Below are positions 1 through 6,371 of a stretch of DNA of 7,677 nt, one piece after another. The stretch is taken from the IMG/VR virus record IMGVR_UViG_2681813234_000009, positions 1 to 7,677 of that record; one strand, 5' to 3'. The translations under genes and the position numbers were made by a program. The first letter of the stretch is position 1, and each line of letters opens with the position of its first letter. The DNA is from a virus. Lineage: Duplodnaviria; Heunggongvirae; Uroviricota; Caudoviricetes. A model generated the notes under the pieces. It did not search any database and was not told where the DNA came from. It saw nothing but the letters and a program-made list of their open reading frames with translations.

Positions 1-426
1 TCAATGTACTGCCACAGCATTTCCTGCCGGGCCACCACGGTTCATCTGATTGAAACCGGCGATTGCCACTGCGACAAAATCATCAGCGTCTCTCACCAGT
101 CGTTCCCGCGTCTCCACCAACTCCCGAAAATAGACTGAACTGTGGCTGCGCATCCGGGCCACCAGCAGAGGTGGCATTGCTTTTTCGATCGCTGGTAACA
201 ACGCCTGAATTTTTTCAACCGCATCAGTGGTGTCTTTCTCCACCCAGCGGAAAATTTTCTGGGTATTACGAGCCAGGGCTTCTGGATGGCTGTCGTCGTA
301 CAGTTCCGGGGACGTCATTCCCAGTTCGAAATAAGCCCTGGTTATCTTGGCCGCCGGAACTTTTTCACCATCCGGACGCGCCCAGGCATTCATAGCCATG
401 CGGATGTGTTCATGCTTGATTTTCAT
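1..426 (-). CDS. CII-like phage regulatory protein (YdaT / CP76-type), 141 aa
   Basis: Complete ORF on the minus strand; stop codon is revcomp of nt 1-3 (tca). Lies directly downstream of the Cro-like gene with an ATGA start/stop overlap, the classic cro-cII arrangement. The N-terminus MKIKHEHI matches my recollection of YdaT-type proteins; family assignment is from memory, not a search. Confidence 0.55.
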   Translation of the reverse strand: MKIKHEHIRMAMNAWARPDGEKVPAAKITRAYFELGMTSPELYDDSHPEALARNTQKIFRWVEKDTTDAVEKIQALLPAIEKAMPPLLVARMRSHSSVYFRELVETRERLVRDADDFVAVAIAGFNQMNRGGPAGNAVAVH

Positions 427-650
427 GAATCATTCTTTCCTTCGTTCAAGGTGTTATCCTTCTTTTTGTAAAGTTCTGGGTTCAAAGATAATTTTCCCTT
501 GGAGTATGCGGCAGCTTCCGCGGCCCTCCCCTTGGGAACTATTTCACCAGGACGTTTGCGCCACATGTATATAGCTTCACGGGTTATCCCATAAAAATCG
601 GCAACTCTCTGAACAGAGCCAAAAAACTGGACAAGTTCATCAACTCGCAT
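423..650 (-). CDS. Cro-like HTH transcriptional regulator (YdaS/DicC-type), 75 aa
   Basis: Small basic protein with an HTH-like segment (VADFYGITREAIYMWRK). Strong SD AGGAGG 5 nt upstream of the ATG on the minus strand (plus-strand 651-660 ttcaccctcc). Divergent from the CI-like repressor across an operator-rich intergenic region. Confidence 0.7.
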   Translation of the reverse strand: MRVDELVQFFGSVQRVADFYGITREAIYMWRKRPGEIVPKGRAAEAAAYSKGKLSLNPELYKKKDNTLNEGKNDS

Positions 651-1822: not shown

Positions 1823-1833
1823 TGAGGTTGACT

Positions 1834-2208
1834 ATGGAATTTAAAGATTTACCAATGCAATTCCAGGAAATGGCAGCGAATATAGTTCGTTCCCAACTGG
1901 CGACTCTTGACCTGAGTACCGTAGAAAAAGAAACCATAGATAATATATCCGGTAACGTGCGCCGTGCCTTTATCGGGTTGTACGAAGAGAAGCAGCACTC
2001 TGATAAGCATGATTCCTCTGAAAAATACTTCCTGGAATTAATGGATATCATTAACAAGGGGTTTGGTTTGTTGATGGAAAAGAAAGGGATTCGAATAGAA
2101 CCCCTTAAAAACCATTTTACTGAGTGCAACATTAATTCCTGTGATTTAAAGCATCCCACTTCAGATGGGAAAGTTGAAGCCAACTATAAAATATCAATTA
2201 ATCATTAA
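1834..2208 (+). CDS. Hypothetical protein, 124 aa (start chosen at MEFKDL with GAGG RBS)
   Basis: ORF track 1822-2208; ATG at 1834 is preceded by GAGG (1823-1826). Protein is charged and soluble-looking with no family I recognise. The 3' half is distinctly AT-rich. Confidence 0.5.
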   Translation: MEFKDLPMQFQEMAANIVRSQLATLDLSTVEKETIDNISGNVRRAFIGLYEEKQHSDKHDSSEKYFLELMDIINKGFGLLMEKKGIRIEPLKNHFTECNINSCDLKHPTSDGKVEANYKISINH

Positions 2209-2265
2209 GTTCTCCACGGGTAAGGTGGAGAACATGCGCCGGACACGGATAAATCTCCGGCATGC
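2209..2265. terminator. Putative bidirectional terminator between convergent genes
   Basis: Perfect 9 bp stem GTTCTCCAC(2209-2217) / GTGGAGAAC(2225-2233) with a 7-nt loop, directly after the plus-strand stop. A second imperfect hairpin CATGCGCCGG...CCGGCATG (2233-2265) is followed by CTCTTT. Sits between the plus-strand ORF end (2208) and the minus-strand gene end (2287). Confidence 0.4.
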
Positions 2266-2286
2266 TCTTTAACATTCTGGATATTC

Positions 2287-2733
2287 CTAACTACAAAGAA
2301 ATCGCATCAATTTAGATTTTGTGGGCAGCTTCTCTTGTTGTTCGATGGAAACGCCTATTTTGATCTGTGTTTTTAAGATCGCAATATCTTTAAGTGATGA
2401 CCAAATATGAACATCCGTTTTTTCCAGAATTTTTAACTGCATTTTCAATTCAGAATCAGAATATTTTTCTGCATCATCAAAAAGCTGCAAATATTCTGCG
2501 GATTTTCTCATGGCGTTACCTGACTTTTGTCCGAATCCATAAATCGTTTGGACGGTTGCGATCACAACAATAAAAACGCCAGAAATTTCCGGAATGAATC
2601 CGCCAATGACAGATGAACCGAGGATAATACTCACCACTGAGAGAAGTTTATCGAGACGACCAGTTGCTACCGAAAATAGTTGCTCAAGAAAATAGCCATA
2701 TAAAATTCTGTCAAGAATATCATCCCGGTCCAT
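2287..2733 (-). CDS. Small membrane protein with two predicted transmembrane helices, 148 aa; function unknown (candidate exclusion/abortive-infection effector)
   Basis: Minus-strand ORF with AGGTGA 6 nt upstream of the ATG. Two hydrophobic helices (LLSVVSIILGSSVIGGFI and GVFIVVIATVQTIYGF) separated by a short PEIS turn, then a roughly 80-aa charged helical C-terminus. Strongly AT-rich versus flanking phage genes and opposite in orientation to the surrounding operon. Confidence 0.65.
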   Translation of the reverse strand: MDRDDILDRILYGYFLEQLFSVATGRLDKLLSVVSIILGSSVIGGFIPEISGVFIVVIATVQTIYGFGQKSGNAMRKSAEYLQLFDDAEKYSDSELKMQLKILEKTDVHIWSSLKDIAILKTQIKIGVSIEQQEKLPTKSKLMRFLCS

Positions 2734-3194
2734 ACATCATCACCTGCTTGTTTGGTTGTTGCTGTTCCCCCTCTCCTCCGAAGGAGCTGGAGATGGTTTT
2801 GGTCGAATGTTTTTCTCTGGTATGTGATCCCAGACTGTTTTATGTGTCGAATTGCCACCACCTGCTTGTGCTCTTTGCTCTGTCATATGATTTCCTTGGA
2901 TCGTTGGGGATATCCAGATTATACAGATTTCTTGTCGTTGGGGAATGACAGGAACCACCTCGCCTGACGTGGTTAAAAGCAGGCACACAACACGAAAGCG
3001 CACGGCGAAGTCATTTCTCCCTCTGTTGCGTGTCGCCGGTATCTTCGACCGTGCGCTTCCGGTTGTGGCACTCCGCGAAATGGCGCGGCGGTAAGTATGG
3101 CGGGGTTATCCTTACCCCCACTGGTAGCACCGGGTTGTCAGGTTGACCATACGCCTGAGTGACAACCCCGCCACAACATCTCCATGTTGAGGCT

Positions 3195-3249
3195 TGTGTG
3201 AGACCTTTGGCGGCATCAGTTTAATTGCTGGCTGATGTCCGCCCTTTTT
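3195..3249 (+). ncRNA. dicF: DicF-like small RNA (3' end defined by intrinsic terminator); 5' end approximate
   Basis: Terminator stem GGCGGCATCAG(3209-3219) / CTGATG(T)CCGCC(3232-3243), 11 bp with one bulge, then CTTTTT (3244-3249). Positioned immediately upstream of dicB as in Qin. Sequence and architecture resemble my recollection of E. coli DicF, but the 5' part differs. Confidence 0.5.
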
Positions 3250-3253
3250 AAAG

Positions 3254-3413
3254 TGAATTTTGTGATGCGGTGAATGCGGCTAAGCGCACGCGGAACAGTT
3301 AAAAAGCGATTAGTTCCCCCGTATCGGGGGTTTATGGGTTTCCCTGTATCCGGCGTTAATTGTTAACTGGTTAACGTCACCTGGAGGCACCAGGCACCGC
3401 ATCACAAAATTCA
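3254..3413. repeat. 19 bp perfect inverted repeat pair flanking about 120 nt of the dicB leader
   Basis: tgaattttgtgatgcggtg (3254-3272) is the exact reverse complement of caccgcatcacaaaattca (3395-3413). Enclosed region holds the hairpin CCCCCgtatcGGGGG and GTTAAC-tg-GTTAAC. The right arm ends 17 nt before the dicB ATG. Confidence 0.7.
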
Positions 3414-3430: not shown

Positions 3431-3613
3431 ATGGAAACGTTATTACCAAACGTCAATACGTCTGAAGGTTGTTTTGAAATTGGTGTCAGAATCAGTAACC
3501 CTGTATTTACTGAAGATGCCATTAACAAGAGAAAACACGAACGGGAGCTATTAAATCAAATATGCATTGTTTCAATGCTGGCCCGTTTACGCCTGATGCA
3601 AAAAGGACGCTGA
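3431..3613 (+). CDS. dicB: Cell division inhibitor DicB, 60 aa
   Basis: METLLPNVNTSEGCFEIGVRISNPVFTEDAINKRKHERELLNQICIVSMLARLRLMQKGR closely matches my recollection of E. coli Qin DicB. GAGGA RBS upstream. Preceded by the DicF-like element, the same order as in Qin. Confidence 0.9.
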   Translation: METLLPNVNTSEGCFEIGVRISNPVFTEDAINKRKHERELLNQICIVSMLARLRLMQKGR

Positions 3614-3899: not shown

Positions 3900-6371
3900 A
3901 TGAGTAAAGTCTTTATTTGCGCCGCCATTCCGGACGAACAGGCAATAAAGGAAGAAGGTGCAGTCGCTGTAGCCACTGCCATTGAAGCCGGCGACGAACG
4001 CCGCGCCCGAGCCAAATTTACCTGGCAATTCCTGGAGCAATATCCGGCTGCTCAGGACTGCGCTTATAAATTTCTTGTTTGCGAGGATAAACCCGGCATG
4101 CCCCGCCCTGCCATCGACTCCTGGGATACCGAATATATGCAGGAAAACTGCTGGGATGAGGAATCCGCTTCCTTTATTCCGGTCGAACCAGAATCCGATC
4201 CGATGAACGTCAATTTTGACAAGCTGTCCCCTGAAGTACAGAACGCGGTCCTGGTTAAGTTCGACACATGTGAAAACATCACCGTTGATATGGTTATTAG
4301 CGCACAGGAATTGTTGCAGGAAGACATGGCAACATTCGACGGACATATCGTTGAAGCGTTGATGAAAATGCCAGAAGTTAACGCCATGTATCCGGAGCTT
4401 AAGTTGCACGCCATTGGGTGGGTTAAGCATAAATGTATTCCTGGTGCTAAATGGCCCGAAATTCAGGCAGAGATGCGCATCTGGAAAAAACGTCGCGAAG
4501 GTGAACGCAAGGAAACCGGAAAATACACGTCTGTTGTTGATCTCGCCCGCGCCAGAGCCAATCAACAGTACACTGACAATTCAACAGGAAAAATCAGCCC
4601 GGTCATTGCTGCCACTCATCGCGAATACAAGCAGACATGGAAAACACTGGATGACGAACTGGCCTACGCTCTCTGGCCTGGTGATGTGGATGCCGGAAAC
4701 ATTGACGGCAGCATCCATCGCTGGGCAAAAAATGAAGTTATCGACAACGACCGCGAAGACTGGAAGCGTATCTCGGCATCAATGCGCAAACAGCCTGATG
4801 CCCTTCGCTACGACCGACAGACTATTTTTGGCCTTGTCCGTGAACGTCCGATCGACATTCACAAAGACCCTGTGGCACTGAACAAATACATTACTGAATA
4901 CCTGACTACAAAGGGCGTGTTTGAAGATGAAGGAACAAATCAGAGCGCAACTGATACTCTCTCGTCGCCAGTACCAGAAACTGATGCAGTGGAAACGGCA
5001 ATTCCGGACAACGAAAAAACCGAATGCAAAGTTGAAGTCGAACCATCTGTAGAGCGTGAGGGGCCGTTCTACTTCCTCTTCACAGATAAGGATGGCGAAA
5101 AATATGGTCGCGCAAACAAACTTTCTGGTCTGAATAAGGCGCTGACTGCAGGGGCTACTGAAATCACGAAAGAAGAATATTTTGCCCGTAAAAACGGTAC
5201 ATACTCAGGTTCACAACAAAATACTGGTGCATCTGACACGACCGCACAACCAGAGCCGGTAAAAGTTACCGCTGACGAAGTAAACAAAATTATGCAGGCA
5301 GCCAATATCAGCCAGCCTGACGCCGATAAGTTGCTTGCTGTATCACGTGGTGAATTTGTTGCAGGGATTAGCGACCCGAATGATCCGAAATGGGTGAAGG
5401 GGATTGAAACCCGCGATTCAGTGAATCAGAACCAGCAAGAAACGGAACAGAACGACCAGAAAGCGGAACAAAACAGCCCAAATGCGTTACAAAACGAGCC
5501 AGAAACGAAACAACCTGAGCCAGTAGCGCAACAGGAAGCGGAAAAAGTCTGCACCGCCTGCGGTCAGACCGGCGGCGGCAACTGCCCTGATTGTGGTGCG
5601 GTGATGGGCGACGCAACATACCAAGAAACATTCGATGACAAGAACCAGGTTGAAGTTCAGGAAGACGATTCGGAGAAAATGGAAGGCGCTGAACATCCAC
5701 ACAAAGAGAATGCTGGCAGCGCTCAGGATCACGCCAGCGATAGTGAAACTGGCGAGACGGCAGATCCCTTAATTACGGTGAACGGTCATCACGTTATCAC
5801 ATCCACCAGCAGGACGTGTGACCATCTAATGATCGACCTTGAAACCATGGGAAAAAATCCTGATGCCCCGATTATCTCAATAGGTGCAATATTTTTCGAT
5901 CCGCAAACCGGAGATATGGGACCGGAATTTAGTAAGACTATCGATCTGGAAACTGCTGGCGGAGTCATTGATCGGGACACCATTAAATGGTGGCTTAAGC
6001 AATCACGCGAAGCGCAATCTGCCATTATGACCGATGAAATCCCGTTAGATGATGCACTGTTACAATTGCGGGAATTTATCGACGAAAACTCCGGTGAATT
6101 TTTTGTTCAGGTCTGGGGAAATGGAGCCAACTTCGACAACACGATTTTGCGCCGTTCATACGAACGGCAGGGGATCCCCTGCCCGTGGCGTTACTACAAC
6201 GATCGCGATGTACGCACAATCGTTGAGCTGGGGAAAGCCATAGACTTCGATGCCAGAACGGCTATTCCATTCGAAGGTGAGCGCCATAATGCACTTGATG
6301 ACGCCCGTTACCAGGCAAAATACGTTTCAGCAATCTGGCAAAAACTGATCCCGAATCCGGTTGATTTTTAA
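3900..6371 (+). CDS. ydfE: Large YdfE-like prophage protein, 823 aa: N-terminal YdfE-homologous region, low-complexity Q/E/N-rich linker, CxxC-x7-CxxC motif, C-terminal DEDDh-type 3'-5' exonuclease domain
   Basis: Uninterrupted 2.47 kb ORF with GAGG upstream. N-terminus MSKVFICAAIPDEQAIKEEGAVAVA... matches my recollection of K-12 YdfE. C-terminus carries DEDDh motifs: D646-x-E648 (MIDLETMG), N-FD (GNGANFDNT) and H796-x4-D801 (HNALDDARY). Cys551/554/562/565 form a CxxC-x7-CxxC motif. Confidence 0.85.
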   Translation: MSKVFICAAIPDEQAIKEEGAVAVATAIEAGDERRARAKFTWQFLEQYPAAQDCAYKFLVCEDKPGMPRPAIDSWDTEYMQENCWDEESASFIPVEPESDPMNVNFDKLSPEVQNAVLVKFDTCENITVDMVISAQELLQEDMATFDGHIVEALMKMPEVNAMYPELKLHAIGWVKHKCIPGAKWPEIQAEMRIWKKRREGERKETGKYTSVVDLARARANQQYTDNSTGKISPVIAATHREYKQTWKTLDDELAYALWPGDVDAGNIDGSIHRWAKNEVIDNDREDWKRISASMRKQPDALRYDRQTIFGLVRERPIDIHKDPVALNKYITEYLTTKGVFEDEGTNQSATDTLSSPVPETDAVETAIPDNEKTECKVEVEPSVEREGPFYFLFTDKDGEKYGRANKLSGLNKALTAGATEITKEEYFARKNGTYSGSQQNTGASDTTAQPEPVKVTADEVNKIMQAANISQPDADKLLAVSRGEFVAGISDPNDPKWVKGIETRDSVNQNQQETEQNDQKAEQNSPNALQNEPETKQPEPVAQQEAEKVCTACGQTGGGNCPDCGAVMGDATYQETFDDKNQVEVQEDDSEKMEGAEHPHKENAGSAQDHASDSETGETADPLITVNGHHVITSTSRTCDHLMIDLETMGKNPDAPIISIGAIFFDPQTGDMGPEFSKTIDLETAGGVIDRDTIKWWLKQSREAQSAIMTDEIPLDDALLQLREFIDENSGEFFVQVWGNGANFDNTILRRSYERQGIPCPWRYYNDRDVRTIVELGKAIDFDARTAIPFEGERHNALDDARYQAKYVSAIWQKLIPNPVDF

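Follow-up and report, generated by a model that had tools for sequence, protein, structure and literature searches.

The nearest counterparts of the locus analysed here are early-left regions of the Qin and Rac prophages of Escherichia coli K-12. In Qin, the small, uncharacterised, and dispensable proteins YdfA, YdfB, and YdfC are encoded on one strand of a single operon, between the repressor gene and dicF-dicB. In Rac, the DUF1391 early-left gene ydaF faces sieB, a lysogeny-type membrane gene transcribed from the opposite strand, and we know of no functional link between the two. At the level of protein families, phrog_6937 and four related PHROGs (phrog_1363, phrog_2151, phrog_9419, and phrog_33007) are found in phages and prophages of E. 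coli and its relatives; none has a known function or structure, so membership gives no mechanism. Type II toxin-antitoxin and effector-immunity pairs are a further point of reference, in which two small genes lie side by side and one codes for a membrane protein that could be toxic.

The 7,677-nt stretch of DNA examined here (the window) is the left arm of a Rac/Qin-type lambdoid prophage, with YdaS/Cro- and YdaT-like genes typical of the immunity region, in which the early-left operon is the counterpart of the lambda pL operon. A YdaT-family gene (1-426, minus strand) lies at the left end and is followed by a P22-Cro-like gene (423-650, minus strand) and a CI/LexA-type repressor gene (743-1393) with HTH_3 and Peptidase_S24 domains. 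Beyond the repressor gene is a perfect palindrome with 15-nt arms and a 2-nt spacer (1463-1494), overlapping a TTGACT hexamer at 1460-1465, and prophages of other immunity types become homologous to the window directly after it, at 1492-1495. The palindrome is likely the operator of this immunity type at the early-left promoter; a consensus promoter scan called none at 1460-1494. Rightward from here lie ydfA, the 124-aa open reading frame (ORF) that is our subject, dicF, dicB (3431-3613, plus strand; NF049927, E=2.6e-37), a DUF1482 gene, a gene for an 823-aa 'exonuclease' (3900-6371, plus strand), an excisionase-like gene, and an integrase gene. The operon reads as a variant of the ydfABC-dicF-dicB operon of K-12 Qin.

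Two small RNA matches lie in this part of the window. A DicF variant at 3195-3244 (plus strand), with a terminator-like hairpin at 3212-3239, scores 45.4 bits (E=2e-8), and default annotation would miss it because this is just under the Rfam gathering score of 48. Between DicF and dicB there is a weaker, STnc100-like match at 3256-3408 on the same strand (35.8 bits, E=8e-6). As a further observation, only residues 642-813 of the 823-aa protein match a known domain, that of Rv2179c-like 3'-5' exoribonucleases, and in its first ~640 residues Pfam gives only a weak zinc-ribbon match.

The 124-aa ORF runs on the plus strand from an ATG at 1834 to a TAA at 2206-2208, with a GAGG ribosome-binding motif, read from the sequence, at 1824-1827, 6 nt 5' of the start codon. 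Upstream in the same operon it is adjoined by ydfA (DUF1391; 1670-1822, Pfam E=1.4e-28), whose TGA stop occupies 1820-1822, leaving a gap of 11 nt. An alternative ATG at 1822 was rejected, as both homology and RefSeq starts are placed at 1834, and in other prophages where ydfC, not ydfA, is upstream, homology begins exactly at that position. On the opposite strand, a gene for a 148-aa two-TM protein (phrog_6315; 2287-2733) converges on the ORF from the position held by sieB in K-12 Rac, with its stop codon at 2287-2289. An earlier note on this DNA had placed the ORF behind ydfA in the operon, with its stop 78 nt from that of the convergent gene and its 3' half in an AT-rich stretch shared with that gene, and all of this is borne out: the stop-to-stop gap is 2209-2286, and G+C is 0.34 in codons 54-124 and 0.37 in the two-TM gene, with 0.43 in codons 1-53 and 0.46 in the whole window.

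The 124-aa ORF is a genuine gene and not a chance reading frame, because dN/dS is 0.2-0.4, phrog_6937 matches along its full length, and the frame is intact among alleles. Specifically, pairwise dN/dS against six other alleles is 0.18-0.41 for pairs with enough substitutions, with purifying selection acting on both halves; the 124-codon frame is open in seven alleles that diverge by up to 15% in DNA sequence; and the phrog_6937 profile matches positions 1-124 of 124 (E=1.5e-73, 245.7 bits). Homologues of the protein form 239 clusters in Escherichia and Salmonella, and RefSeq contains an identical sequence catalogued, like the call made here, as a hypothetical protein. A 136-codon antisense ORF at 1773-2183 was considered and rejected, with extra stops interrupting it in three of the six other alleles (L005, L006, and L013). 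No Rfam family matches inside the gene.

Although the 124-aa protein shares its operon and strand with the Ydf proteins of Qin, it has no sequence similarity to them. A tblastn search with the 124-aa protein against the K-12 Qin region returned nothing significant, with no homology to YdfB or YdfC, and in three other loci (L005, L007, and L008) ydfB and ydfC are separate genes upstream of a family member. Depending on the prophage, the 124-aa ORF follows either ydfA or ydfC. Neither Qin nor Rac of K-12 carries the gene, which is therefore dispensable; in Qin, ydfC is followed directly by a conserved 55-bp element that lies at the 3' end of the ORF in the window, to which we return below.

Family alignments divide the 124-aa protein in two. 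The N-terminal part is a block of ~53 residues (MEFKDLPxxIQxIAAxxL...NVRxAFxxLY; codons 1-53, 1834-1992) that forms the family core, and the remainder (codons 54-124, 1993-2208) is an AT-rich, partly disordered extension that recombination has exchanged many times in related prophages, leaving unrelated C-termini in other members. The four related PHROGs, whose members are 64-212 aa long, match only residues 1 to ~60, sharing the N-terminal block with the 124-aa protein but differing in C-terminal sequence and length. A HMMER scan of 1.84 billion representative proteins recovered 56 clusters at 50% identity, with lengths of 31-208 aa, most of which match only profile positions 1 to ~65. Searching with a profile restricted to the N-terminal block brings in relatives from Salmonella, Klebsiella, Raoultella, Serratia, Hafnia, Yersinia, Citrobacter, and Kluyvera, and most of these are stand-alone proteins of about 60-75 aa; across several enterobacterial genera, conservation of its protein sequence extends down to 22-30% identity. 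The distant family members also lie in early-left operons, where their neighbours are a repressor gene and genes of the YdaS/Cro and YdaT kinds. At three loci (L021, L064, and L065) the family member comes first, ~200 nt beyond the repressor gene, and stand-alone members of 61-75 aa directly follow the repressor gene in Klebsiella and Salmonella, with three genes intervening in Raoultella.

Structure prediction points to the same two-part architecture. From a shallow alignment limited to close homologues, AlphaFold2 produced a model with a mean pLDDT of 55, which is unusably low; with an alignment of diverse relatives, residues 1-50 reach a pLDDT of ~89 and are predicted to form a hairpin of two helices (8-23 and 32-56), the only confident part of the model. 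A third helix is predicted at residues 62-84 with a pLDDT of ~60, and residues 84-124 are below 50. The hairpin (N-terminal 53 residues) is acidic, with a pI of 4.65 and a net charge of -3.5. In a Foldseek search of PDB and BFVD, the sole return was a 52-aa homologue from phage phi191, superposing at 1.2 A. The statement that the protein has no recognisable domain also held up, with profile searches of Pfam, NCBIfam, PADLOC, and PDB sequences giving no consistent match for the 124-aa protein and 43 diverse relatives. A literature search by RefSeq accession and searches at the operon level gave no paper on the gene.

Three further points concern how members of this family might be read or named. 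A candidate zinc site (H94/C97/C103/H107) in the C-terminal extension was rejected, as C97 and H94 vary among alleles. One 149-aa relative (P0162) has a YdfC-like N-terminal part fused to the hairpin (…VEFKDLPQSIQ…), which may be a real fusion or an artefact of readthrough or frameshift between adjacent ydfC and hairpin genes. Four stand-alone hairpin proteins of 63-67 aa from Serratia, Salmonella, and Hafnia (P0204, P0248, P0257, and P0260) are named 'formyltetrahydrofolate deformylase', a name that is implausible for such short proteins and seems to be an annotation error that has been propagated.

The two parts of the gene also differ in their history. Among full-length alleles, dS is 0.03-0.2 in codons 1-53 and 0.4-0.7 in codons 54-124, and recent recombination or nucleotide-level constraint, rather than a greater importance of the protein, could explain the lower value in codons 1-53. 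Homology breaks off in other alleles at codon 46, 53, 60, 78, 93, or 106, and in a further 662 E. coli genomes the match is confined to the gene's 5' part. The earlier note had hinted at a separate history for the 3' half, and this holds across the family, both in the dS values and in the replaced 3' ends. It had also suggested that this is an ordinary phage gene of the early-left region and that the insertion bringing in the two-TM gene had remodelled its 3' end; the first half of this suggestion stands, but the second does not. The two-TM cassette (712 bp, 2263-2974, minus strand) is absent from L005, L006, and L013-L016, and L005 and L006 align with the window without a break over 1834-2262, stop codon included, the match picking up again at 2975. 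As the cassette begins only beyond the conserved 55-bp element, it leaves the 124-aa ORF untouched, and although the 3' half is of separate origin, the two-TM insertion is not the cause. The AT-richness of the 3' half is intrinsic to the gene, since alleles without a two-TM gene are equally AT-rich there (G+C 0.32-0.33). The 124-aa gene itself is a separately exchangeable cassette, spanning about 1830-2207.

We favour, at a probability of roughly 60%, the explanation that the 124-aa ORF is a real, non-essential early-left accessory gene of a Rac/Qin-like lambdoid prophage, with an early binding protein as the working model for its product. The protein is already catalogued (in RefSeq and as phrog_6937) and is uncharacterised, and the gene belongs to a well-known class, the dispensable, mosaic accessory genes found in lambdoid early operons. 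Going by gene order, we predict that it is silent in the lysogen and that, when the CI/LexA-like repressor leaves the palindrome at 1463-1494, its product would be among the earliest to appear after induction. The working part is probably the hairpin, because it stands alone (~60 aa) in other Enterobacterales, usually encoded by the first gene after the repressor gene, and the C-terminal extension would then either modulate its activity or be dispensable for it. The protein most likely binds a host or phage protein, rather than acting in catalysis or binding DNA, because the hairpin is small, acidic, devoid of catalytic or DNA-binding features, and a stand-alone protein in most relatives, and because its neighbours in the operon, DicB, Kil, and YdfD, target host functions. 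The promoter-proximal location of the relatives also raised the possibility of an antiterminator of the lambda N type. Lambda N has a basic, arginine-rich, RNA-binding N-terminus; the N-terminus here is acidic and predicted to fold as a helical hairpin, and we rejected this assignment.

The early binding protein model does not cover the convergent genes. The recurrence of a convergent gene beside family members could reflect a functional link that lies outside it. The 55-bp element (2208-2262) is a piece of conserved backbone with two stable hairpins (z = -2.4 on the plus strand and -4.0 on the minus strand), found by BLAST in every related locus aligned to the window, including K-12 Qin (41/55 bp), and it could be a minus-strand terminator, an RNA processing site, or a recombination joint. 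It divides two insertion sites: the two-TM cassette enters on its far side, and a second, distinct site lies between the gene body and the element. In a survey of L007, L008, L009, L013-L016, L021, L022, L063, and L065, the slot between the 124-aa ORF and dicF holds at least six unrelated families of opposite-strand genes, encoding proteins of 59, 69, 73, 77, 78, 91/145, and 92 aa as well as a SieB-family protein in Raoultella, and the two-TM protein in the window. The 73-, 77-, 91/145-, and 92-aa genes occupy the second site and belong to PHROG families without functional annotation; the 73-aa gene reaches 11 nt into the 3' end of 124-aa alleles that are otherwise full-length, and the other three overlap the replaced 3' ends of other alleles by 23-41 nt. 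Among the distant relatives, a small convergent gene follows the family member in L021, L022, L063, and L065, and none was called in L023 or L064. This slot, the position of sieB in K-12 Rac, looks like a hotspot for accessory genes expressed in lysogeny.

These arrangements are the basis of the main rival explanation, which we regard as unlikely: that the hairpin protein is a general early escape or neutralising factor for a convergent neighbour expressed in lysogeny, or its antisense or transcription-interference partner, and would free the prophage's own induction from the exclusion gene in the sieB-position slot. The frequency with which small convergent genes overlap or abut the 3' ends of family members speaks for such a role, both in E. 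coli (73, 77, 91/145, and 92 aa) and at distant loci (78, 69, and 59 aa), as does the bona fide SieB-family gene faced by the Raoultella relative, the convergence of sieB with ydaF in the same slot of Rac, and a promoter-proximal position that fits very early expression. However, the neighbours are mutually unrelated and often absent, and one conserved hairpin is unlikely to recognise products of six or more unrelated families. Nor could the C-terminus be matched to a particular convergent gene, as residues 54-106 recur with the 73-aa gene, with the 91-aa gene, with the two-TM gene, or with no convergent gene. No convergent gene accompanies the family member in L005, L006, or L064, two-TM loci occur without any family member, and genes that overlap are trivially linked by their physical arrangement. 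A broader version, to which we give little credence, takes the hairpin as the mark of a promoter-proximal early protein of YdaS/YdaT-type enterobacterial prophages, placed beside a hypervariable hotspot that exchanges C-terminal extensions and opposite-strand genes expressed in lysogeny (SieB, two-TM, and at least five other small families); the protein would be an early switch by which the prophage itself neutralises or escapes the exclusion or defence gene filling that slot.

A decaying or non-functional frame, conserved through recent spread or through an RNA-level role in the dicF-dicB precursor transcript, would account for the lack of a recognisable domain, the low prediction confidence of the C-terminal tail, the many truncated or replaced alleles, and the absence of the gene from K-12 Qin and Rac. 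This is very improbable, given that dN/dS is well under 1 at dS values of up to 0.7 in the C-terminal half, that the seven alleles keep all 124 codons, that the hairpin is conserved as protein between genera, and that Rfam finds nothing inside the gene.

The earlier note had further proposed that the 124-aa protein could be the second component of a two-gene module, for example a sensor or antitoxin for the convergent membrane protein. We scored both genes in 5,426 complete E. coli genomes, with presence defined as at least 80% coverage. The 124-aa ORF occurs in 695 of them and the two-TM gene in 72; only 14 have the pair side by side, and these represent one lineage, each with 98% identity or more to the window across 1834-2733; 681 of the 695 genomes with the 124-aa ORF lack an adjacent two-TM gene, and 58 of the 72 with the two-TM gene lack an adjacent 124-aa ORF. 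In IMG/VR, 30 of 39 two-TM loci have no 124-aa family member within 5 kb, and the nine that do all have the arrangement of the window. In L002, ydfA is followed directly by the two-TM gene, with window positions 1830-2207 precisely missing, and in L003 the two-TM gene comes after ydfA, ydfB, and a ydfC-like gene, with no 124-aa family member. The breakpoints of the two cassettes thus differ (1830/2208 for the 124-aa cassette and 2262/2975 for the two-TM cassette), each occurs without the other, and they are not gained or lost as one unit of DNA.

More distant two-TM relatives give the same picture. Those in Salmonella (60% identity), L020 (63%), and Providencia phage PSTNGR2lys (44%) have no 124-aa homologue nearby, and of the 73 phage records that match the 124-aa ORF, none is PSTNGR2lys or Elizabethkingia phage EKP1 (30%), the only complete phage genomes with a two-TM homologue. 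The 124-aa gene is inherited independently of the two-TM cassette, full-length homologues occur whether or not a two-TM gene is present, the two genes do not co-vary, and an obligate module is refuted by these co-occurrence data. The locus also differs from type II toxin-antitoxin and effector-immunity pairs in that its genes are convergent rather than co-transcribed, their co-occurrence is confined to one lineage, and the 124-aa protein lacks both a DNA-binding domain and any known antitoxin domain. A sensor or antitoxin role is hardly credible even though the genes are adjacent, convergent, 78 bp apart, and both AT-rich in an arrangement that recurs in 14 complete genomes and nine IMG/VR contigs, for every co-occurrence is that one arrangement at 98% identity or more, most E. 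coli carriers of either gene lack the other next to it, a conserved backbone element separates their distinct insertion sites, and the two-TM gene has a conserved same-strand upstream ORF of its own.

That upstream ORF is the better candidate for a partner of the two-TM gene, if it has one. It encodes 48 aa (2740-2886, minus strand), has an AAGGA ribosome-binding motif, and stops 6 nt before the two-TM ATG; its C-terminal part is proline-rich (HIPEKNIRPKPSPAPSEE...). Farther upstream on the same strand, a TATAAT within AAATCTGTATAAT (2918-2923) resembles a promoter -10 element and may act as one, and the same -10 motif lies upstream of the two-TM homologue in the Providencia phage. Equivalent ORFs precede the 60% and 63% two-TM relatives, with HIPEKN/D-[IV]R followed by a polyproline run, and in the Providencia phage the corresponding position ahead of the 44% homologue carries an annotated proline-rich ORF of 38 codons; among the relatives at 44-63% identity the proline runs range from PPPP to PPPPPPPP. 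In two E. coli alleles the last 29 codons of the 48-aa ORF are identical in protein sequence, with all four nucleotide differences there synonymous, and the ORF is present in 30 of the 39 IMG/VR two-TM loci. One lineage has lost it through deletion between AGCAGGTG direct repeats. We speculate that its product could be a partner of the two-TM protein or a leader peptide, with the proline run slowing translation.

The two-TM protein occupies the sieB position of K-12 Rac but is not of the SieB family: Pfam, PF14163 included, gives no match at E<=1, and BLASTP against K-12 SieB gives E=0.35. Its only link to SLATT proteins is a weak PADLOC match to RTasSLATT (E=0.02, 12.7 bits, residues 31-144), with no SLATT match in Pfam, and a two-TM alignment scanned against species-representative genomes recovered no relative. 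At the right edge of the cassette, a 36-bp stretch (2950-2985) has a 95-97% identical copy just upstream of ydfC in L004, L009, L011, and L013, and is possibly a mosaic joint used in recombination.

The hairpin proteins constitute a small family that is absent from Pfam, widespread in enterobacterial prophages, and free to swap its C-termini. For the locus in the window, the analysis removes a false lead, as the 124-aa and two-TM genes give no ground to infer a new two-component defence system, and it places two neighbouring insertion sites, where unrelated opposite-strand genes gather, between ydfA/ydfC and dicF. These side findings are useful, if of modest value, for the annotation of prophage accessory regions and for the choice of defence-gene candidates, and the proline-rich ORF and the double insertion hotspot merit follow-up more than the 124-aa ORF itself.
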